Both the position numbers and the translations under genes were made by a program. Source: Alphaproteobacteria bacterium (GTDB lineage Bacteria; Pseudomonadota; Alphaproteobacteria; Rickettsiales; UBA1997). Taken from it: 64,000 nt of DNA. The stretch covers positions 177,272 to 241,271 of the forward strand of contig BJGH01000001.1 of the NCBI GenBank assembly GCA_014190355.1. Reading direction: 5' to 3'. Positions 25,371-42,149 of the stretch are shown here, in pieces. A model generated the notes under the pieces. That model was not told the DNA's origin and made no database searches. It saw only the letters and a program-made list of their open reading frames with translations. Numbering within the stretch: position 1 is the stretch's first letter; every line of letters starts with the position of its first letter.

Positions 25371-25383
25371 ATTGCCTAAAGAT

Positions 25384-25576
25384 ATTATAAATTTTTTTAG
25401 GTCGTGCTTTCGGGCAAGTTAAAAACTTGCCCTTACGCAACGACGGGAGTATAGAATAGATTTTGGAGATTGGGGTGAGATTATAAATTTTTTTTGGTCG
25501 TGCTTTCGGGCAAGTTAAAAACTTGCCCTTACGCAACGACTGTTGGCTAGAATGAGGTTTGGAGATTGGGGTGAGA
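25384..25576. repeat. Tandem duplication (2 x 96 bp) of a hairpin-containing element
   Basis: Copy 1 is 25384-25479 and copy 2 is 25480-25575. The first 61 nt differ at one position and the last 18 nt (TTTGGAGATTGGGGTGAG) are identical. A 17-nt patch between them shares only 8 identities. Each copy holds a GC-rich hairpin: GTCGTGC-TTTC-GGGCAAGTT-AAA-AACTTGCCC-TTAC-GCAACGAC. Confidence 0.8.
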
Positions 25577-25663
25577 AAATATTTTTTTTAAATTTAAGCT
25601 TTGCAAAATTAACTATTGAAATTCAAAAACAATTCAATCATAATTATTCTAATTTTAGAAATT

Positions 25664-25739
25664 GGGTGATTAGCTCAGTTGGTAGAGCATCTCCCTTACA
25701 AGGAGAGGGTCGGCAGTTCGAGCCTGTCATCACCCACCA
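25664..25739 (+). tRNA. tRNA-Val (anticodon UAC), CCA encoded
   Basis: GGGTGATTAGCTCAGTTGGTAGAGCATCTCCCTTACAAGGAGAGGGTCGGCAGTTCGAGCCTGTCATCACCCACCA folds as a cloverleaf. The acceptor stem is GGGTGAT/ATCACCC and the anticodon loop is CTTACAA. Confidence 0.9.
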
Positions 25740-25890
25740 TTTTTTATAAAAATTTACGAAGTTTTAAAAATTCTTAAATAAAATTTTAAATTTTATTTTA
25801 TATTAGTTGTTAAATAATATTTTTAACCTAATTTTTATAAACCTAATAATAAAAATTTTGTTTTTTTAATTCATAATTTTTCTTCCCTTT

Positions 25891-25967
25891 GGGGGTGTAG
25901 CTCAGTTGGTTAGAGCGCTTGCCTGTCACGCAAGAGGCCGCGGGTTCAAGTCCCGTCACTCCCGCCA
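25891..25967 (+). tRNA. tRNA-Asp (anticodon GUC), CCA encoded
   Basis: GGGGGTGTAGCTCAGTTGGTTAGAGCGCTTGCCTGTCACGCAAGAGGCCGCGGGTTCAAGTCCCGTCACTCCCGCCA folds as a cloverleaf with anticodon loop CTGTCAC. Confidence 0.9.
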
Positions 25968-25973
25968 CTTACT
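25953..25973 (+). repeat. Direct repeat copy 1 (last 15 nt of tRNA-Asp plus 6 nt of downstream flank)
   Basis: CCGTCACTCCCGCCACTTACT is identical to 27621-27641. Weaker similarity continues into the A-rich flank. Confidence 0.85.
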
Positions 25974-26214
25974 AAAAAAAACTACTACAGGATCACTTCT
26001 GATCGCAATAGCTTTTGGAAAATATAAAGAAGATGGCGCGCCTTATACTGGCACAAAAGACGGAGGAAGAGTTTATATAGCCTACTTAAACCATCCGCTA
26101 CTATTCAGAGTAGGATTAGCTTTATTAGTTTTTGGATTTGGTTTTCAATTATTGGAAAAGTTAGAAATATTAAAACTAATAAATTCCTTAGCATACTAAC
26201 ATTAAGATTAGAAT

Positions 26215-27483
26215 ATGGACTTCAAATTTTTATCAAAATTACTCCAAAACTATTTGGTAAGATTGGGTAACACATCCAAAGAAAATAAACTTGCGTATCT
26301 ATTATTAATAATAGTTTTTTTTGTATGCTATAACACAGGATTGGTAGCGCTTTTTAGTGCCTTAATTGCAATTTATGCAATATTTTTTAATACCATGAGC
26401 AATGAATACAACGCTAGAAGTGCACTTATTAGCGATTTAACCAATAAAGCAACTGACCATTTAAAAGCATTTAAGGATGGTACTTTGGCATTGGAAGCAA
26501 TGCAAATGCAACTTTTACCTAAACCTCATTACTTTCAAATTTATGATGTTTTAACCTATAAACCTAAAAAAACTGAATATCGAGAAAAAGAACTAATAAT
26601 TAAGATTGATAACAGAACTGGTATAGTCTCAAAATTTAAAATTTTCATAGCCAATAAAGGTAAATGCATAGAAAATTACACAGAAATAGATGAAAAAGAA
26701 TATTTAGGAAAAGGTCAATTTGGAGAACCAGTAATACAATGGATCAAAATTTATGAAATGCTTGATATCCGAGCATACTCAGCAGAATTTATTAAAAAAT
26801 ACATTGTAGGAATGAAAAAATCAGGACTAAAAAAAGACGAAGTAGGAGTCAAAGCAAATCTACAAGGTATATGGCTTCATGGCGCAAAATTAGAAGAAGC
26901 AAACTTGGAGGAGGCAAACTTACAGGGAGTTAGTTTGCAAGGAGCGGATCTATCAGGAGCAAATTTATATAAAGCCAATTTGCAAGAATCATATTTACAG
27001 GGAGCAATTCTACAAGAGGCTAATTTACAAAAAACAAACTTAGAGAGAGCTAATTTACAAGAAGCTAATTTAATAGTAATGCAATTACAGGAAGCGGATT
27101 TATCAATGGCAAATTTAAGAAAAACAAATTTAATATTTTCTAATTTACAAGGAGCGGATTTAAATAAAACGGATTTCAGAGAAGCGAAATTTCGACAAAC
27201 AAATTTTAAAAAAGCTATAATTGGCCTTATTAATGAAAAAATAACACTTGAAGAAGTTTTATTAAATCCTGATTTGTTTGAAAAACACAAAAAAGACTTA
27301 CCTAGATTTTCTAGTCTTGTTCAATTAGAGGGAGCAATATTTCATGAAGATTGCGGCATAATTGATGGAAAAATAAAAAATGCATTAATTGAAGCAGAAA
27401 AATGGAAGCTGGAGCATGAAAAGAAAAATGGATTGAGTCCTGATTTTTGTGATTATCGCCTAACTTATCTCGACACAAAATAA
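26215..27483 (+). CDS. Membrane-anchored pentapeptide-repeat protein
   Basis: 422 aa with two N-terminal TM helices. From about aa 215 to 335 it has ~24 consecutive A(N/D)LxG/E-type pentapeptide units (ANLQGIWLHGAKLEEANLEEANLQGVSLQGADLSGANLYKANLQ...). Confidence 0.85.
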   Translation: MDFKFLSKLLQNYLVRLGNTSKENKLAYLLLIIVFFVCYNTGLVALFSALIAIYAIFFNTMSNEYNARSALISDLTNKATDHLKAFKDGTLALEAMQMQLLPKPHYFQIYDVLTYKPKKTEYREKELIIKIDNRTGIVSKFKIFIANKGKCIENYTEIDEKEYLGKGQFGEPVIQWIKIYEMLDIRAYSAEFIKKYIVGMKKSGLKKDEVGVKANLQGIWLHGAKLEEANLEEANLQGVSLQGADLSGANLYKANLQESYLQGAILQEANLQKTNLERANLQEANLIVMQLQEADLSMANLRKTNLIFSNLQGADLNKTDFREAKFRQTNFKKAIIGLINEKITLEEVLLNPDLFEKHKKDLPRFSSLVQLEGAIFHEDCGIIDGKIKNALIEAEKWKLEHEKKNGLSPDFCDYRLTYLDTK

Positions 27484-27620
27484 CGCATCTAGTTCTCAGG
27501 AAAGTATAAATATAAATTTATAGTCATAAGCAATCTTGGGGGTAAAAATGGGGGTAAATAGGTTTTTTATAAAACCATAAATCCTTTATTTACAAATCTC
27601 CAAAGCCTACAATATGACTG

Positions 27621-27641
27621 CCGTCACTCCCGCCACTTACT
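27621..27641 (+). repeat. Direct repeat copy 2 (att-like duplicate of the tRNA-Asp 3' end)
   Basis: CCGTCACTCCCGCCACTTACT is a 21/21 match to 25953-25973. No tRNA body lies upstream of it. Confidence 0.85.
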
Positions 27642-28112
27642 TTAAAAAAACCACTATATTTTTTCTCGTTTTTATTGTTAATAAACTAAAAAAATTTCAA
27701 AAATCCTTTTGCAAATTTTCCTTCCCCATATTTATAATATTCATCAGCAAAAAATTACTTAATTATCCTTGGCAACCTTGTTCGAGCTCTTAAATAATAT
27801 TGGCAATCAAGCATAAATTTAAGACTTAGTAAAATCATGACCAAGCTTGATTTATATGATTAAGATAGATAATCATAAGCAATTTGTGTTGATTGAAAAT
27901 ATATCAAACTTAAATCAAAGCATTTTGTAATTAAGAAAAAATATAGCATTAATCACAAAATAAATTATAACAAAATATAAAGAAAAAAAATGCCACTTCC
28001 AATCAACCAAAATCAGCAACCATATTCCAATTACATGGAAAACTATATAAAAAAACTAAAATACACCAAATATTTAATATTAAAAACACGCAAAACACTA
28101 ACAAACTAAACT

Positions 28113-29120
28113 ATGTCAAATAACCAACAAAACCAACCCTCCCCGCAAATCCTACTTTATCAAAGCGAGGATGGCAAAATTAAACTTGATGTTGAATTAC
28201 AGCAAGAAACCGTCTGGCTTAATCAAGAACAAATGGCGGTTTTGTTTGGCAAGGCAAAATCTACCATCAACGAACATATTCAAAATATTTATACTGAAGG
28301 AGAGCTTTTAGAAAGCCAGTCCATGAAGAAATTCGGAAATTCCGAATTTCAACAAAAAGCCACAAATTATTACAACCTTGATGTCATAATTTCTGTTGGT
28401 TATCGGGTAAAATCAAAGCAAGGCACACAATTTCGCATTTGGGCGACTAATCGTTTAAAAGAATATATTGTTAAAGGTTTTGCACTAAATGATGATCGCT
28501 TTAAAGCTGGCAAGTCGATGAATTATTTTGATGAATTGCAAGAAAGAATTCGTGAAATTAGGCTTTCTGAACGCTTCTTCTATCAAAAAATTAAAGATAT
28601 TTACGCAACCAGCATTGATTATGACGCCAAAGATGAAAAGACAATTGAATTTTTTCAAATTGTCCAAAACAAGCTTTTATGGGCAATAAGCAAGCAAACT
28701 GCAGCAGAGTTGATTTACAAAAGGTCTGATGGCAATTTGCCTTTTATGGGCATGAAATCTTATGACAAAAAAACCGAAAAATCGATCACTAAAAAAGATT
28801 CTGAAATTGGCAAAAATTATTTAGATGAAAGCGAAATTAAATTGCTTGGGCTTTTGGTTGAGCAATATTTGGCATTTGCCGAAACGATGGCAAATCAAAG
28901 AATTGCAATGTATATGAAAGATTGGATTGCAAAACTTGATTCAATCTTGCAACTTAACGGCAGAGAGATTTTAAAACATGCAGGAACAATAACTCACAAA
29001 ATTGCAGTTGAAAAATCAGGAAACGAATATCAAAAATTTAAAGAAATTCAAAAAAAACTAGAAAAACAAGAAAGCTTGAAAGAGCTCGAAAATGATTTAA
29101 TGAAAATTAAAAACTTATGA
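28113..29120 (+). CDS. RhuM-family (virulence-protein RhuM-like) protein
   Basis: 335 aa. The N-terminal pattern ILLYQSEDGKIKLDVELQQETVWLNQEQMAVLFGKAKSTINEHIQNIYTEGEL...YNLDVIISVGYRVKSKQGTQFRIWATNRLKEYIVKGFALND matches the RhuM family as I recall it. Confidence 0.75.
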   Translation: MSNNQQNQPSPQILLYQSEDGKIKLDVELQQETVWLNQEQMAVLFGKAKSTINEHIQNIYTEGELLESQSMKKFGNSEFQQKATNYYNLDVIISVGYRVKSKQGTQFRIWATNRLKEYIVKGFALNDDRFKAGKSMNYFDELQERIREIRLSERFFYQKIKDIYATSIDYDAKDEKTIEFFQIVQNKLLWAISKQTAAELIYKRSDGNLPFMGMKSYDKKTEKSITKKDSEIGKNYLDESEIKLLGLLVEQYLAFAETMANQRIAMYMKDWIAKLDSILQLNGREILKHAGTITHKIAVEKSGNEYQKFKEIQKKLEKQESLKELENDLMKIKNL

Positions 29121-29800
29121 CTAACAAAGAAGATTTTTATGAAAAAAATAATTCATCAATATTCGACCCAAAAGGAACCAATTGGATTGATGATATTGAA
29201 ATTTTATTAAACGATAAGCATTTTGTTAAACATTATCAAGATAATTTTTTTTCTCTTTACGCATCAGGCTATAAAGATTCAGCAAATATACTTTGCGAAC
29301 ATATCATAGAAAAAAAACGAACTTTAAATCGATCCGGCATAGTTTATCCAATAATTTATCTTTACAGACATTATTTAGAACTTCAGTTAAAAAACTTAAT
29401 TTTATTAAGTAATAAAGCTATTCTTCTAATTAATAACAACTCCTTTGATGATAGCTATAAAAAAATAATACTTTCTCATAATCTTATAGATTTATACGAT
29501 TTATGTTTAAAAAATCTAAAAAACTTATCAGAAGAAATTGGGGAAGAAGAATCTTTAATTAACGAAAATGAGGATTTTTCAATGCTAAAAAATATTATTA
29601 AAGAATTTGATAAACATGACAAATTATCTGAAGCTTTTAGATATCCGGTGGATAAAAAAAATAATTTTAACTTACAAAAAATTAATAACATTAACATAAA
29701 AAAAATATACGATATGATTAATGAGGGCACTAAAATATTAGATGGAGCTGAAGGCTGGCTTGATCATCAAATTTCTGAAATTTCTAAGAATCATAGTTGA
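29117..29800 (+). CDS. Hypothetical protein translationally coupled to the RhuM-family gene
   Basis: 227 aa. Its ATG overlaps the RhuM-like stop (ATGA). It looks helical and has locally conserved-looking motifs YLYRHYLELQLKN, LSHNLIDLY and AFRYPVDK. No family recognised with confidence. Confidence 0.55.
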   Translation: MTNKEDFYEKNNSSIFDPKGTNWIDDIEILLNDKHFVKHYQDNFFSLYASGYKDSANILCEHIIEKKRTLNRSGIVYPIIYLYRHYLELQLKNLILLSNKAILLINNNSFDDSYKKIILSHNLIDLYDLCLKNLKNLSEEIGEEESLINENEDFSMLKNIIKEFDKHDKLSEAFRYPVDKKNNFNLQKINNINIKKIYDMINEGTKILDGAEGWLDHQISEISKNHS

Positions 29801-29834
29801 TTTTAAAAATAAAAAATTTTTTTAAGTTGATATT

Positions 29835-30146
29835 TTGGCAGCCAAAGGAGATTTAGGTTTTGAAAATCCTAAAATTTGTATTCAAGTAAAATCGGGCTCA
29901 GCGGTTGGAATTGATATTTTAGATCGCCTTTCAGGAACAATCAAAAAAGTTAAAGCTGATTTTGGTTTGCTGGTTTCTTGGGAAGGTTTCAAAGGAAGTA
30001 TTAAAGAAGAAAAGAAAAATGAATTTTTTGCAATCAGGCTTTGGGAGCAAAAAGAACTGGTTGAAGAATTTTTAAAACATTATCATAAACTAGATGAAGA
30101 GATAAAGTCAGAAATCCCTTTGAAGCAAATCTTGATTTATTTCTAA
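29835..30146 (+). pseudogene. 3' fragment of an Mrr-like restriction endonuclease (Mrr_cat family)
   Basis: Only 103 codons, opening with TTG. GDLGFENPKICIQVKSGSAVGIDILDRLSGTIKKVKADFGLLVSWEGFKGSIKEEKKNEFFAIRLWEQKELVEEF...EIPLKQIL corresponds to the C-terminal half of ~300-aa Mrr-type enzymes. The N-terminal wHTH and the upstream catalytic Asp region are missing. Confidence 0.6.
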
Positions 30147-30369
30147 TGATGAATAATTTTAACTAAAATAAATTATGGAGGTGTAATTGCGGTCAGTAGC
30201 TATAAAATTCGAATTATAGATTTTTTTTAATATTTTTTTATTGATAAAAACAATTCCAAAAAAGCTGGCAGGCTAGAAAAAATCTTTTGCAATACTAACA
30301 GATTTAGTAAAATCTATCTTATTTATTTTTAAATTAAAATTTATAAATTATCACAAAACCTCTGCAAAT

Positions 30370-31686
30370 TTATTGAATTTCACACCCTTTGCCTCTCCTT
30401 CTCAATAAACCAGTACAAGAATTTCTTCCTTTGGATGTTACAGGTAAACTAGAACCATCTACCTGGTCATTTGTATTATCGCTCAAACTAAAACCCCTTG
30501 CAATCTGCGATTGAGTAGTGTTATCACAATTTTCTAAAACAATCTGGCCATCTCTTAATAATGAAGAATTAACTTGATTTTCTTGAGGATTATGAGTGTT
30601 CTGAAGATTATGGTTTAAGGGATTTTGATGAGATTGGATAGACTCTAAAGCATTTTCTTCTAAATCACTTTTACCAGAACTTATAATAGCTAATTCACAG
30701 ATAATTTTAGGTTCTTTATCTTCAATTCCAGGTTTTTTAAGTCCCCGTTCAATTTGATGGGATTCAGATCTTGATTGATTAGCTATTTTACTTTCCGCTT
30801 TACTTGCCGCGACACTATTAAATGCCGATACTCTATCTCTTACACTTCCTAACTCTTTTTCATCTATACCCTGAAGAGCGCTACCATTTTGGTTTGTCGA
30901 AGGTTTGATTGATGATCGCATTGGAAGAGTCGGCATAATTCTTCTACCATATTGATTGACAGTTCGCTCATTTCTATTTAAATAGGTTTCGTGACAAGTT
31001 TTTATTTTTTTTAAAATTGTTTTTAAATCTTCTAAATTATCGATTTCAATTTTTTGGGGATTAGATCTATATTGAGCCGCTTCACAAAAGAAAATTCTTA
31101 ATTTATCATCTTCAGTATCGTAATTTACAAAAATTGAAGATCTGCTTGAATTTTCATTAAACTCCATTTCAACAATTTTTTCTTTAACTAAAAATGATAA
31201 ACTATTTTCAGTTCCAACAAAAATAAATTCTTTAAGAGTTTTAGAAGTTTTCTTTAGATTTTCAATCGCCAAATCTTTAAAATATTTTTGCAATTCTTTT
31301 AATTCAACATCACCATCATGATGTTTGGGCATGACTTCATCGTCAGCTAAACTATCAATTTTTATTTGTCTTTGATCAATAGCATCAATAAATAAAGCTG
31401 TTATTTGAGCAATTCTTTCCTTATCCGATATATGAGACTTAACTTTATCAACATCAAAACTAAATATTTCAAAATTGTTATCATCAGTAATTTCAATTTG
31501 ATATCTCTCGCCATTATCTATTAAAGCCATGGCTTTTCGCCCAAGTCTTTCAGTTATCCCGCATTCAATTTCACTTACAAAAGGATCTTTGAAAAAACCT
31601 TTTTCACTATTAGATTTAGTATTGTCTTCAATGAAATTATTGATTTGCTGATAATATGGATTGTTTGCAATATTTGAGCTTTTCAT
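30370..31686 (-). CDS. Hypothetical protein ending in a polybasic CaaX-like box
   Basis: 438-aa ORF with no recognisable domain. The C-terminus, read codon by codon from the minus strand, is ...CTGLLRRRGKGCEIQ-stop. Confidence 0.6.
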   Translation of the reverse strand: MKSSNIANNPYYQQINNFIEDNTKSNSEKGFFKDPFVSEIECGITERLGRKAMALIDNGERYQIEITDDNNFEIFSFDVDKVKSHISDKERIAQITALFIDAIDQRQIKIDSLADDEVMPKHHDGDVELKELQKYFKDLAIENLKKTSKTLKEFIFVGTENSLSFLVKEKIVEMEFNENSSRSSIFVNYDTEDDKLRIFFCEAAQYRSNPQKIEIDNLEDLKTILKKIKTCHETYLNRNERTVNQYGRRIMPTLPMRSSIKPSTNQNGSALQGIDEKELGSVRDRVSAFNSVAASKAESKIANQSRSESHQIERGLKKPGIEDKEPKIICELAIISSGKSDLEENALESIQSHQNPLNHNLQNTHNPQENQVNSSLLRDGQIVLENCDNTTQSQIARGFSLSDNTNDQVDGSSLPVTSKGRNSCTGLLRRRGKGCEIQ

Positions 31687-32167
31687 AAAAAATGAAATTA
31701 ATTAATTTTTGTCACATATAAAATAATCTTTAAAATAATTAAGATTTTTATATTAAAAAAACTAACCTAATTATGATTTATTTATTAAATAAATTTTTTC
31801 ATAAATAAATTATTTTTAATTAGAAGTCAACAATTTATTTTTTTCTTTTAGATTTTTATCTTTAGGTTAATTTTTAAATGCCAAATTTAATAAAAAATAC
31901 AATCATTTTTTTTAATATTTTAACCATCTGCATCATTGATAACATGATTAAAATACATCGTTTGACTATTATAAAATTACCATCTTAAATTAATTCATCA
32001 AAACTAATAAATTTTTTAAGAAATATTTGATAAATGCTCTAAAACCATGATTTTGTATGGTTAGCTTCGTAAATCATTTTTAGTTTTTAAATATTTTTTT
32101 AAAAAATGTTAATTTTAAATTTTAAAAAAATTGCAAAAAATAGCTTTAATTATTACAACATTAAATT

Positions 32168-33394
32168 ATGAAAAAAATTTTAGTAAAAAATCCCATTGTT
32201 GAAATTGATGGCGATGAAATGGCTCGAGTCTTATGGCATATGATCAAAGAAAATTTGATTTTGCCTTATCTAGATCTTAACATAAAATATTATGATTTAG
32301 CCATTGAAAAACGCGATGCAAGTGAAGATCAAATCACTATTGATGCAGGTAATGCCATCAAGGAATATCAAGTTGGTATCAAATGCGCAACGATTACTGC
32401 TGACGAAGCTCGTCAAAAAGAATTTAATCTTAAACAAATTTGGAAATCGCCCAATGGCACAATTCGCAATATTTTAGATGGTACGGTGTTTCGTGAACCA
32501 ATTGTTTGCAAAAATGTTCCAAGACTTGTTAGTAATTGGCAAAACCCGATCATTGTTGGCAGACATGCTTTTGGCGATCAGTATAAAGCAACAGATTTTT
32601 TAATTCCAAGTGCTGGCAAATTATCAATTAAATTTGTTGGTGATGATGGAAAAGTTATAGAACATGAGGTTCATAAATTTAAATCAAGCGGTGTTGCCAT
32701 GGCAATGTATAATGTTGACGAGTCAATCACCGGCTTTGCTCGCTCATGTTTTAATTTAGCCTTGCAAAAAAATTGGCCATTATATCTTTCAACTAAAAAC
32801 ACTATCCTAAAAAAATATGATGGCAGATTTAAAACTATTTTCCAAGAAATTTTTGATAGCGAATTTAAAGAAAAATTTTCTTCACAAAATATCACCTATG
32901 AGCATCGCTTGATCGATGATATGGTAGCTTTTGCTTTGAAATCGAATGGCAATTTTATTTGGGCTTGTAAAAATTATGATGGCGATGTGCAATCTGATTC
33001 AGTTGCTCAAGGCTTTGGTTCGCTTGGTTTAATGACCTCAGTATTAATAACTCCCGATGGCAAAATTTTAGAAAGTGAAGCTGCTCATGGCACAATCACT
33101 CGTCATTATCGCCAATATCAAAAAGGCATTCCAACCTCTACTAACCCAATTGCTTCAATCTTTGCTTGGAGTCGTGGTTTGGCATTTCGAGGAAAAATTG
33201 ACCAAAATTTAGAGTTAATTGATTTTTGTCAAAAATTAGAAAAAGCTTGTGTGGCAAGTGTTGAATCAGGAAAAATGACTAAAGATTTAGCAATCTGCAT
33301 TAATCCCAACAAAGTTGAGCATGGCAAAGATTATCTTTACAGTGAAGAATTTATTTTAGCAATCAAAAAACAGCTTGAAAAATTTTTAAAATAA
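32168..33394 (+). CDS. icd: NADP-dependent isocitrate dehydrogenase (homodimeric, eukaryote-like type)
   Basis: 408 aa. Motifs [56 protein letters not shown] and [10 protein letters not shown] are present. Confidence 0.95.
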
Positions 33395-33460: not shown

Positions 33461-34561
33461 ATGCAAAATATTGTTAATATTGAAAAAAAAGCTAGAACAT
33501 TCACCCTTGCCTTGGTTGACAATGACGATACTTTGATTGATAAAAATGCCAATATCAATACACATTTACTTAATCATTTACGCAATCAAGTTAAACCAGA
33601 TTATTTAGCAATAATAACTGGCAGGATTTTAGGAACAGTTGCAAATATAAACCTCAATCCGCATTCGTCTTCTTTTTTTCGAAGGAAAATATCTAGATGG
33701 AAAAATCAATTAGCTTTTGATGAGGTATATCAGGGTTTAGCTAATTCTGAAGATTCTGAAAATCCTCCATTAAAAATTGATTTTGTTAGTACACCATATG
33801 ATTTAGCTCATGTAAAAGAAGATGATTGGAAAGGATTTTATCAAACAAAAATGAAACCTTTTGAAAATGCGGTAAAAAATGATACTAAAATAACTTCAAT
33901 TGAGCAAGCCAGAAGATATTGGAAACATAATGCAAGTAAATTACAATCTTCAGATGAAGAAAAATGTTTAGAAATTCTAACAGATGCTGATTTATCTAAA
34001 ACAAAATATGCTGAAATAGTTAATGCTTTTAAAGTAAATGATGATGTGAAGAATGAATTAATTAAATCTCATCCAGCTAATAAACCCTTAGCTAACAAAC
34101 ATCTGCAAACTCTGGATTTTTTAAGAAAACTTGCCAAAACAAAATCACTAGATAAAAAAAATTATGATGAGTTAGAAATTGCCATCTATGACGATAATAC
34201 AGAAAATATTCAAGCCATGAAAAATGCCGCTGGAGATTTTAATAAATTAACTGGGATTAGATTAAAATTTTTTACAGCAAATATTAAATATGGTGAAGGC
34301 AATAATATGTTTAGCCAAACTCAAAATGTTTGTGCTAAATTAACTACTAAATTAGATTCTTATCGAAGATTTTATATGGCATTATCTTATAAAGTATCAT
34401 CAAATTCAAGAGCTGAAAATAACCTATTTTATCGCTTAAAAAATAATTTTAGAGATAAATCTTCAAGATCACATGATCTTGTTTCAGGTGAACATGAAGG
34501 ATACCAAGGGCATAATTCTCAAAGTTTTCAACTTCCAACAACTCCCCCCTCAAATCAATAA
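33461..34561 (+). CDS. Hypothetical protein with HAD-phosphatase-like motifs (probably the 5' part of a split gene)
   Basis: 366 aa. It has LALVDNDDTLID (hhhhDxDxT, HAD motif I), LAIITGR (motif II-like) and IAIYDDNTENIQAM (motif IV-like). The ORF ends just after a C6 run at 34544-34549. Confidence 0.5.
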   Translation: MQNIVNIEKKARTFTLALVDNDDTLIDKNANINTHLLNHLRNQVKPDYLAIITGRILGTVANINLNPHSSSFFRRKISRWKNQLAFDEVYQGLANSEDSENPPLKIDFVSTPYDLAHVKEDDWKGFYQTKMKPFENAVKNDTKITSIEQARRYWKHNASKLQSSDEEKCLEILTDADLSKTKYAEIVNAFKVNDDVKNELIKSHPANKPLANKHLQTLDFLRKLAKTKSLDKKNYDELEIAIYDDNTENIQAMKNAAGDFNKLTGIRLKFFTANIKYGEGNNMFSQTQNVCAKLTTKLDSYRRFYMALSYKVSSNSRAENNLFYRLKNNFRDKSSRSHDLVSGEHEGYQGHNSQSFQLPTTPPSNQ

Positions 34562-35237
34562 AACTCGTTATGATTTTAAATTAACAACCCATCAAGAAAC
34601 TAACCCAATTTCACAAGCAATTAAAGATAACAATCAGCAAGTTTATTTTAGCGAATTGGCAAAAATAATTTTAGCAACTAAAAACCAATTTGATAAAGGT
34701 AAAGGCGAAGGAGAAAAACTTGATTTAGATGACATAACCAAAATAATAACCATGGCAATTGCCCTAAAAGGCTTTAGCGAAAAATCTGATCGAGATCTTG
34801 AAGATAATTGGCAGGCAATTGAAGGGAATCCTCAATTAAGACCGAGTGATTTAAGAAGATTTGGAGCAATTTTTCAAAAACAAATTAGTAGTTATGCATT
34901 AACAGGCAATCCAAATGCCACAAGACCTGAGGTAGGTATGCGCTTAAAAAGAATCGACATAAATTTCTTGCCTGAAATTATGAAACAAGCCGAAATTCAA
35001 TTACAATCAGGAGCTAAAGATTCGGATATTACCGATTTTAATAATAGTCTTAAAGATAATTTACAAAAATTAAACGAATTAAAAATTACCAACGCTTCTC
35101 AAGATCAATCAGCCAAGGACCAAGTAAAAAATGAATTTTATGATCAATTATTAATTCCAAATAAATCCCTATTAAGACCATTAGCTTCAAGTATAGTGCA
35201 AAAAAATAACCGCCCGCATAAAAAAAACAAATGTTAA
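34473..35237 (+). CDS. Hypothetical protein (probably the out-of-frame continuation of 33461-34561)
   Basis: This ORF overlaps the upstream ORF by 89 nt in another frame. Removing one C from the C6 run joins ...QLPTTPP to QINKTRYDFKL..., giving a protein of about 590 aa. Its stop abuts the rmuC stop with no spacer. Confidence 0.45.
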   Translation: MILFQVNMKDTKGIILKVFNFQQLPPQINKTRYDFKLTTHQETNPISQAIKDNNQQVYFSELAKIILATKNQFDKGKGEGEKLDLDDITKIITMAIALKGFSEKSDRDLEDNWQAIEGNPQLRPSDLRRFGAIFQKQISSYALTGNPNATRPEVGMRLKRIDINFLPEIMKQAEIQLQSGAKDSDITDFNNSLKDNLQKLNELKITNASQDQSAKDQVKNEFYDQLLIPNKSLLRPLASSIVQKNNRPHKKNKC

Positions 35238-41345: not shown

Positions 41346-42149
41346 ATGCCAACAAAAACACTCCTTCAAATTGCATCATTCAATGGTAAAATTGAAGATG
41401 TGACAAATTTAATCAAGAATAATGTAGATGTTAATGAAAGCGACAATGTAAACTTGGAAACCCCAATTTTCTTGGCCTCGCAAAATGGTCATTTGGAAAT
41501 CGTTAAGAAGTTAATTTTGGCAAATGCAAATATTAATCTATCAAATAAATATAAATATGATCCGCTTATGGTAGCATCTTATTATGGGCATGAAGAAGTT
41601 GTTAAGGAGTTAATTAATTCTGGTGCTGATCCTAATAAAAAAAATATTTTTGGCCAATCGCCTTTATTTCTTGCTACTAAAAGGGGAAACTTAAAAATTG
41701 TCAGAGAATTAATTAAAGCTGGTGCTAATGTTAATGAAGAAAATAATGACAAAGAAAATCCTCTTTATGAAGCGATAAAAAGATTTAATGAAGAGGCTAG
41801 AAAGTTAACAATTTGCGACCAAGAAAAAAGCACATTAGATGTAATCGAATTAGAAAAAACACAATATTTAGAAATTGCTAAAACCCTAATTTCAGCGAAT
41901 GCTGATGTAAATCTTCCAAATAAATATGGAGAAACTCCGCTCCTGCTTGCAATGTTAAGTGGAAATGAAGAAATTATAAAAGCATTTGACCCGCATGAAG
42001 ATCCTGATAAATTAAATTTAGAGGAATTATATAAAGGATTACTAACCTTTGCTCCATTCCCTTCTCCATCTAACTCCCCCACCAACTCTCCTTCTCGAAC
42101 TCCATCTAATACTCGAACTCCATCCAATACTTCTCATGAAAAAAAATAA
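41346..42149 (+). CDS. Ankyrin-repeat protein with an S/P/T-rich C-terminal tail
   Basis: 267 aa with at least 5 ANK units (ETPIFLASQNGHLEIVKKLILANANIN; DPLMVASYYGHEEVVKELINSGADPN; QSPLFLATKRGNLKIVRELIKAGANVN; ETPLLLAMLSGNEEI). The tail is PFPSPSNSPTNSPSRTPSNTRTPSNTS. Confidence 0.85.
   Translation: MPTKTLLQIASFNGKIEDVTNLIKNNVDVNESDNVNLETPIFLASQNGHLEIVKKLILANANINLSNKYKYDPLMVASYYGHEEVVKELINSGADPNKKNIFGQSPLFLATKRGNLKIVRELIKAGANVNEENNDKENPLYEAIKRFNEEARKLTICDQEKSTLDVIELEKTQYLEIAKTLISANADVNLPNKYGETPLLLAMLSGNEEIIKAFDPHEDPDKLNLEELYKGLLTFAPFPSPSNSPTNSPSRTPSNTRTPSNTSHEKK

Follow-up and report, generated by a model that had tools for sequence, protein, structure and literature searches.

The stretch of DNA analyzed here (64 kb, hereafter the window) comes from the metagenome-assembled genome (MAG) "Alphaproteobacteria bacterium LBMAG18" of Lake Biwa bacterioplankton, and it raises the question of what occupies the 6.2 kb between the end of its tRNA-Asp gene (25967) and the start of icd (32168) and how this DNA (locus tags LBMAG18_01740 to _01780) came to lie there. 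An earlier, sequence-only reading described about 6 kb at this place as non-core, decayed accessory DNA, that is, a tRNA-targeted island after the loss of its mobility genes. The interval is very probably a composite, layered genomic islet without an integrase, situated at an integration and defence hotspot at tRNA-Asp. Its layers are a cassette with the pentapeptide-repeat gene PRP422, a defence remnant made up of a RhuM-family gene, the gene p227 and a dead Mrr-type nuclease gene, and the fast-evolving orphan p438.

The newest layer is delimited by a direct repeat of the tRNA gene end. The final 15 nucleotides (nt) of tRNA-Asp and the 6 nt beyond them form the attL core, CCGTCACTCCCGCCACTTACT, and 21/21 nt are identical between 25953-25973 and 27621-27641 (attR), with 0 matches in 100 shuffles. 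A sister lineage, located through the only homolog of p438, is represented by the contigs L085, L086 and L087 from three independent samples (JGI 3300043442, SRR32583968 and SRR32583965), which share 90-95% DNA identity with the window. In all three the segment 25988-27620 is absent and the site is empty: tRNA-Asp abuts the sequence that follows 27641 and a single copy of the core is left. At the tRNA-Asp 3' end, the LBMAG18 lineage and its sister differ by the exact presence or absence of the cassette. Most likely the insertion took place here after the two had split, the alternative being precise excision in the sister. The cassette contains PRP422, a startless frame of 74 codons and no integration or transfer genes, and it would have been integrated by a tyrosine integrase that was encoded elsewhere or later deleted. 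A cis-mobilizable element (CIME) is defined as one in which integration and transfer genes have been lost while attL and attR are intact (ICEberg 2.0, PMC6323972); since the cassette has perfect attL and attR cores and none of these genes, it satisfies this published definition. However, the described CIMEs derive from integrative and conjugative or integrative and mobilizable elements, whereas the att arm of the cassette resembles P4-type elements and its mobilization is only putative. The tRNA-derived repeat bounds this newest layer only; no distal tRNA-derived repeat was detected near icd for the older layer.

At the left end of the cassette, the open frame running from the end of tRNA-Asp to just 5' of PRP422 has neither Met nor another start codon. 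Its 74-codon length is unusual for a frame in DNA of 30% GC, and it may be the remnant of a lost gene.

Comparison with relatives extends the argument to the whole interval. The relatives fetched through icd are labelled Rickettsiales MAGs, and one of them, L002 (protein identity 85% for icd and 92% for HU), has the order zapA, FTHF (the 5-formyltetrahydrofolate cyclo-ligase gene), hup, tRNA-Val, tRNA-Asp and icd. In the window 6.2 kb separate the last two of these genes, where the sister lineage has about 2.6 kb and L002 only about 0.4 kb; as the L002 spacer measures about 400 bp, the window has some 5.8 kb extra. The interval had rightly been called non-core, although the span as drawn, from 25384, took in two core tRNA genes. 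Further islands were found by using RhuM as a query on metagenome contigs. The RhuM-bearing relatives keep the order zapA, FTHF, hup, tRNA-Val and tRNA-Asp, with HU 89% and tRNA-Val 100% identical, and their RhuM proteins share 89-92% identity with that of the window, but the cargo between tRNA-Asp and RhuM varies: a type III Mod and Res with an HsdS fragment (L106), a type I HsdM and HsdS (L107), or SIR2 and HerA (L108). In L109, the contig of which does not reach tRNA-Asp, an uncharacterized 437-aa gene and a D12 methyltransferase gene precede RhuM. On the other side of RhuM lies, in 4/5 loci, a short sequence called X, which in the window forms the right arm of the cassette: X follows RhuM in L106 (and is itself followed by trmD), L108, L109 and L113, a short fragment with RhuM and then X only, and was not detected in L107. 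A more distant RhuM (65%) is found 610 bp 3' of tRNA-Asp in L116. The comparison of this interval from hup through the tRNA genes to icd, which the earlier reading had proposed, thus revealed a content that is variable among relatives, not conserved.

Judging from these sequences, a Rickettsiales-like clade of AT-rich freshwater alphaproteobacteria has an integration and defence hotspot at tRNA-Asp, because the same site bears differing anti-phage cargo before RhuM. Like other defence hotspots, it combines one site with varied cargo (type III and type I restriction-modification (R-M), SIR2-HerA, a methyltransferase and Mrr remnants), and RhuM stands amid R-M genes, an arrangement described before (PMC3710099). 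Unlike them, one flank here is RhuM plus an att arm, and part of the slot in this genome is taken by the non-defence gene PRP422.

In the relative L001 (icd 95%) the tRNA-Asp 3' end is repeated three times in tandem within positions 1-210 of the contig (at 1-15, at 85-112 and, in degenerate form, at 181-206), some 215 bp before icd. Because the contig begins inside one of these copies, an island probably lies upstream.

What kind of integrase acted at this site may be read from X, a region of about 100 bp before the attR core. Its homologs 3' of RhuM in the related metagenomic contigs L106, L108, L109 and L113 likewise end in a copy of the tRNA-Asp core, partly degraded there. The motif TTGGGGGTAnAAATGGGGGTA of X is present in six IMG/VR contigs, in 3/6 of which it directly precedes a P4-like integrase gene (MKLNARQVDTAK..KPYKLSDGGGLF), while in 2/6 it sits 60-70 nt 5' of a tRNA 3' fragment, with the same geometry as in the window. 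Since TTGGGGGTAnAAATGGGGGTA adjoins P4-like integrase genes and tRNA fragments, X probably consists of putative integrase arm-type binding sites, and the cassette would be of P4-type origin, integrated by a P4-family integrase.

These observations can be arranged in a proposed order of events. The oldest detectable layer is RhuM, about 470 bp 3' of tRNA-Asp, followed by p227, the Mrr-type nuclease gene and p438; the Mrr gene has decayed here, and in the sister lineage two deletions have cut this layer further. The 1.67-kb PRP422 cassette at the tRNA-Asp 3' end would be the newest layer. Cargo at tRNA-Asp may be turned over by site-specific integration, by recombination between conserved flanks (tRNA-Asp on one side and RhuM-X on the other) and by deletion. 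The simplest account of the present arrangement is tandem accretion, in which an older RhuM island, its right end already lost, received a new X-ended cassette at the att nearest to the tRNA gene.

Several facts weigh against the layered-islet reading. X lies 5' of RhuM in the window and 3' of it in the relatives, which makes the proposed order of events tentative. The short spacer is seen in one relative only (L002), and the older layer may have been either gained here or lost in L002. Neither an integrase nor its remnant was found in the window by Pfam searches of the island open reading frames (ORFs) or by tblastn with P4-like integrase, and the relatives' islands that were retrieved have neither of the two. 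Near icd, the right boundary has left no second X or att remnant; it falls somewhere within 31687-32130, and L001 and L002 become homologous again only from about 32130-32163. Finally, apart from the GC content at third codon positions (GC3) of RhuM, nothing in the interval is atypical in composition or codon usage. The interval has a GC content of 0.28 (0.298 for the window), a mean GC3 of 0.219 (versus 0.208 +/- 0.039) and a codon-usage distance of 0.160 (versus 0.137 +/- 0.038); RhuM, with a GC3 of 0.301 (the window maximum), is the sole compositional outlier of the interval. The comparison with the flanks recommended by the sequence-only reading does not separate the interval from core genes, and since this test has no discrimination the case for an island rests on synteny and the att evidence. 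On these grounds (the 21-bp duplication, the empty sites, L002, the shared right arm and the missing integrase) the idea of a tRNA-targeted island after mobility-gene loss holds.

The features of the interval are listed in Table 1. The pentapeptide-repeat gene, RhuM, the 227-aa ORF, the nuclease fragment and the orphan are all where the earlier reading had placed them, and the long spacers of about 630, 220 and 480 bp that it set against tightly packed flanks measure 629, 223 and 481 bp, with a coding density of 74% in 25968-32167 versus 87-88% in the flanks. Its word "decayed" suits the Mrr fragment and the lost mobility genes, but the other four ORFs are intact.

Table 1. Features from the repeats upstream of tRNA-Val to icd (positions in the window)
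Feature	Position	Strand	Basis or remark
Two tandem ~96-nt palindromic repeat units	25381-25572	+	Between hup terminator and tRNA-Val promoter
tRNA-Val(tac)	25664-25739		ARAGORN; Rfam tRNA model
tRNA-Asp(GTC), intact, integration target	25891-25967	+	ARAGORN; Rfam tRNA model, 74.1 bits
attL core	25953-25973	+	Exact 21-nt copy at 27621-27641
Att-bounded cassette without integrase (CIME-like), 1,668 bp	25974-27641	+	Missing from sister lineage
Startless 74-codon open frame	25975-26199	+	ORF list; Pfam: no match
PRP422, pentapeptide-repeat gene	26215-27483	+	Pfam Pentapeptide, 3e-34
X, right arm of cassette, two GGGGGTA repeats	27536-27620	+	Homology to relatives' island ends
attR core (tRNA-Asp 3' end + 6 nt)	27621-27641	+	Exact repeat of attL core
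Non-coding leader of older island layer	27642-28112	+	Sister and relative homology
RhuM-family gene, intact, 335 aa	28113-29120	+	Pfam PF13310; PADLOC PDC-S05
p227, 227-aa ORF	29117-29800	+	Rare all-alpha family, 17 homologs
Mrr-type pseudogene, 5'-truncated	29826-30146 (Mrr_cat ORF 29835-30146, 103 aa)	+	Pfam Mrr_cat; PDLC04815
p438, 438-aa orphan	30370-31686	-	Single homolog, P0019
Spacer holding the island's right boundary	31687-32167	.	No att remnant detectable
icd	32168-33394		408-aa NADP-IDH, Pfam Iso_dh

How the islet came to lack an integrase can be explained in more than one way. It is possible, though doubtful, that the tRNA-Asp locus is a cassette site served in trans, at which integrase-less units, all ending in the same X arm of about 100 bp and a tRNA-Asp core, would be inserted and exchanged by a P4-type integrase encoded elsewhere in the genome or brought by a visiting element. 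The units would then carry a single gene (PRP422) or a defence operon followed by RhuM, and the locus would be a tRNA-based counterpart of cassette capture and not the wreck of one self-sufficient island. A similarly tentative standing must be given to the explanation that a P4-like satellite or prophage lost its integrase and other genes after integration and left the PRP422 cassette as a stump, without any mobilization in trans. The position of the X motif directly 5' of P4-like integrase genes in "viral" contigs of IMG/VR and the resemblance of the startless frame to a gene remnant agree with such a stump, but both att cores are perfect (21/21), the insertion is younger than a split with a synonymous divergence (dS) of only about 0.15, phage-family matches are limited to generic pentapeptide PHROGs and tblastn finds no integrase remnant. 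A prophage remnant was also considered and rejected, generic pentapeptide PHROGs being the only phage-family matches.

It is improbable that the interval is ancestral chromosome which the relatives lost reductively, the 21-bp repeat having merely mediated the deletion in the sister lineage. The composition and codon usage, which are like those of the rest of the window, the lack of an integrase and the two plain deletions in the sister (27967-28801 and 29114-30279) would suit this history. However, the repeat is not a random one but the tRNA 3' end plus 6 nt, X matches the ends of the relatives' islands as well as att arms from P4-type elements, the cargo at the same site is wholly different among relatives, the synonymous divergence of RhuM is about half that of core genes, and L001 carries three tRNA-Asp 3' scars. 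A chimera of different organisms made in metagenome assembly or binning can practically be dismissed: the window does come from a MAG and the short-read contigs of related strains break nearby, but they break at the hairpin repeats outside the island, tRNA-Val and icd are also linked in an independent assembly of run DRR125123, and sister contigs from three other samples join hup, the tRNA genes, the RhuM remnant, p438 and icd. The DRR125123 contig, a single one from the Logan assembly, runs from tRNA-Val into icd, and its gene products match those of the window exactly except for one residue in the Mrr-fragment ORF.

The layered islet can be compared with known tRNA-linked islands. Salmonella SPI-3 at the selC tRNA gene is an island of the P4-family type, and it is there that rhuM was first named. 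Like P4-family tRNA islands, the islet entered at a tRNA 3' end with duplication of the tRNA end, it is absent from relatives, is mosaic in its layers and has RhuM as cargo, and the GGGGGTA repeats of its arm resemble those 5' of P4-like int. It is unlike them in having no integrase and a typical composition, in being tiny (6.2 kb in total, with a newest layer of 1.67 kb) and in its host, a small-genome freshwater Rickettsiales-like bacterium. The islet is genuine and well supported but conceptually ordinary, and current concepts are left unchanged.

What, then, do its genes do? RhuM is the gene with the clearest relatives. Its product matches PF13310 (Virulence_RhuM) at 1.3e-95 (319.9 bits, cut-off 33.7) and the PADLOC model PDLC04853 (PDC-S05) at 7.5e-127 (model positions 5-325 of 336), in each case a full-length match, and the family is already catalogued as a single-gene candidate defence under this name. 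RhuM-like genes were seen earlier within R-M loci, where they were proposed to be toxins, and in Salmonella pathogenicity islands (PMC3710099), and one PDC-S05 gene in E. coli reduced the plating of T7 and T5 about 1000-fold and that of T4 about 10-fold (bioRxiv 10.1101/2024.09.26.614923). The ratio of nonsynonymous to synonymous divergence (dN/dS) of RhuM against its relatives is 0.06-0.08, and the gene is under strong purifying selection; it may still function in phage defence. Its dS is 0.54-0.74, versus 1.0 to >2 in neighbouring core genes, and this synonymous divergence, about half that of core genes, suggests that RhuM was exchanged among these lineages after their split. As for the leader in front of it, the part 27642-27966 is 94% conserved in the sister lineage and homology to the relatives' RhuM loci starts at about 27996-28032; the promoter of RhuM presumably lies within the leader 27642-28112.

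In the sister lineage the older layer is more decayed. The deletion 27967-28801 takes the presumed RhuM promoter and the first 230 codons, and the RhuM remnant, which has an in-frame stop, is a pseudogene. Furthermore, 29114-30279, that is, p227 and the Mrr fragment, has been swapped for about 55 bp beginning with the ATGACT of p227.

The stop codon of RhuM and the start codon of p227 overlap by 4 bp (ATGA). The two genes are possibly co-transcribed, and the earlier reading had named this pair as a candidate for a novel module. This proposal fails, since a p227-like gene occurs in 0/80 RhuM loci and RhuM is already PDC-S05. RhuM, in turn, is present in none of about 11 contexts of p227-family genes that were examined, so a conserved two-gene system of RhuM and p227 was rejected: the neighbours of the p227 family differ, and the overlap is a local arrangement, a p227 gene following RhuM here only, unlike in other PDC-S05 loci. 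Homologs of p227 are rare, namely 17 among 5.8 billion proteins, all stand-alone and of about 180-220 aa. In addition, tblastn detected distant homologs, with identities near 30%, on 225 plasmids (172 conjugative, mostly enterobacterial) and only three in IMG/VR, but none in phage records. The contexts of the family include an island with an integrase and DUF927, positions 3' of D12 methyltransferases and a place inside a phage morphogenesis module, and in these contexts the p227-family genes occupy cargo positions in mobile elements. On the Methylocapsa plasmid pRX1 (L098, 3790-5606) a family member lies 33 bp 3' of a Shedu nuclease gene, and on a Shewanella plasmid (L105, 3324-5531) another lies 33 bp 3' of a DUF6035 gene, near Abi and SieB; the product of this DUF6035 gene is weakly CoiA-nuclease-like. 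There are hints here of a recurring "nuclease plus p227-like" pair.

The relationship of p227 with known folds is more difficult to judge. The AlphaFold2 (AF2) model is all-alpha with a predicted local distance difference test score (pLDDT) of 76.8, and the Foldseek matches of highest probability are HEPN structures, 4nqf foremost (0.91), but none is significant (4nqf: E = 0.43, TM 0.38/0.53); nothing significant was found by Foldseek against PDB and BFVD, and a profile search against PDB sequences gave no match. The Pfam HEPN family (PF05168) gives sub-threshold matches in 8/17 members (E up to 1; best 21.8 bits versus a threshold of 22), no match to p227 itself and essentially negative results for seven plasmid or phage homologs. 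Like HEPN proteins, p227 is predicted to be an all-alpha bundle, and it has a "FRYP" motif, and its family's genes lie in mobile elements beside nucleases; unlike them, it has no Pfam match and no Rx4-6H motif, R84 and H121 being 37 residues apart with no His after R175, and its Foldseek E-values are not significant. HEPN-likeness is therefore only tentative. The residues invariant across the extended family, R84, E88, K92, H121, D168, R175 and Y176, point to a putative active or binding site.

The nuclease gene that follows p227 is evidently dead. Its fragment covers positions 42-113 of 115 of Pfam Mrr_cat and positions 239-339 of 346 of PDLC04815 (PDC-S02, 2e-38), while the full-length homologs are restriction endonucleases of 339-347 aa in plasmid defence islands. 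Homology begins at "VDILAA", directly behind a stop codon (TAA), a usable start codon is first met 3' of the catalytic Asp (GVDIL motif), and nothing upstream of the fragment resembles the missing N-terminal residues, about 230 in number. No complete protein of about 340 aa with the N-terminal domain and the D...(Q/E)xK core is encoded here, and a type IV restriction endonuclease gene of the PDC-S02 family has lost its first ~230 codons. The possibility that p227 and the 103-aa ORF are the halves of one split Mrr gene was rejected, because p227 is unlike the N-terminal domain of the homologs and the truncation is clean.

PRP422 starts with a hydrophobic N-terminus; besides an orphan N-terminal domain it comprises a repeat region (about residues 205-335) and a C-terminal domain. 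The repeat core is typical of pentapeptide-repeat proteins; its score against PF00805 is 116.6 bits (cut-off 20.2), and in the NCBI annotation it is a 362-aa form starting at Met61. It gives partial matches to the PipB2, PipB and HetL models, all under the cut-offs. Its repeats match the NCBIfam models of the Salmonella proteins PipB and PipB2 at 1.5e-17 and 5.2e-16, but the scores are far under the cut-offs and the N- and C-terminal domains are orphan; the N-terminal 210 aa have no relative among 5.8 billion proteins or the JGI contigs. For p438, a search of 5.8 billion + 1.8 billion proteins gave a single homolog, the sister ortholog P0019 (79% identity), and no remote homologs were found. 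In six core genes nearby dN/dS is 0.02-0.20, but in p438 it reaches 0.78, even though neither copy is disrupted and every indel preserves the reading frame. The AF2 model of p438 is unusable (pLDDT 30.7); the N-terminal ~250 residues may have secondary structure, predicted at low confidence, and the C-terminal half is of low complexity. The C-terminus, LLRR(RG)KGCEIQ, with a basic stretch before CEIQ, is conserved in the sole ortholog. Compared with a CaaX box, CEIQ has the Cys at -4 and a fitting Ile, but its fit is only a loose one because Glu at the first "a" is not aliphatic.

Both PRP422 and p438 are candidates for secreted or host-interaction proteins. Such an effector role is suggested by analogy and by an ankyrin-repeat gene nearby (267 aa, 41346-42149, amid housekeeping genes), the ankyrin repeat being a eukaryote-like domain typical of host-associated bacteria.

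On the other side of icd two overlapping ORFs are observed, p366 (33461-34561) and p254 (34473-35237), where the sister has a single ORF of 555 aa or more; a frameshift in a hypervariable segment (about 34455-34560) separates them here. Over the N-terminal part, identity with the sister copy is 66% and dN/dS about 1.9, a 51% homolog of this gene follows icd in L001, and no family matches were found for p366/p254. Since both p438 and p366/p254 evolve fast, icd sits between two fast-evolving lineage-specific genes. After the Rickettsiales MAGs, the closest relatives of icd itself are those of Bacteroidota (Dyadobacter and Chitinophagaceae), with 72-76% protein identity.

The left flank of the interval is housekeeping, with MraZ, RsmH, TrpB, TrpA, ArgJ, ZapA, 5-FTHF cyclo-ligase and HU, and on the right are icd, an uncharacterized gene, RmuC, SecA, an EPSP-synthase-family (MurA-like) gene, the ankyrin-repeat protein and PepA. 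An Rfam scan of 24-33 kb gave the two tRNAs and nothing more, and a promoter and terminator scan was uninformative in this AT-rich DNA (31 promoter-like sites versus 38 expected).

Between the hup terminator and tRNA-Val lie the two tandem hairpin repeats, which the sequence-only reading had taken as att-like. As att sites they were rejected, for both units stand in tandem 5' of the two tRNA genes, and no copy of them occurs at the island's other end; the true att duplication is the 21-nt one. The two copies are 89% identical, and the fold of the repeat DNA is -14 kcal/mol (z = -4.2). In strains with identical HU, compared with the help of contigs including L085, L094 and L095, the copy number varies: the window has two, L085 three and L094 at least four. 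The stems GGGCAAG/CTTGCCC, GCTCAAG/CTTGAGC and ATCAGG/CCTGAT covary, with 5 pairs changed on both sides (covariation 0.259 versus 0.135 in shuffles, 0/500 as high). The repeat has no Rfam match and no further copy in the window. In some strains each repeat unit encloses another hairpin, which is GC-rich, and short-read contigs break at these repeats, not within the island.

The finding means that very small, AT-rich freshwater Rickettsiales-like genomes keep a dedicated defence hotspot of fast turnover at tRNA-Asp, and the window and its sister lineage provide a clean natural pair of an occupied and an empty site for an integrase-less cassette. Moreover, two uncharacterized gene sets are brought to attention: the p227 family, often found after a nuclease gene on plasmids, and the orphans flanking icd, which could be host-interaction or surface proteins.

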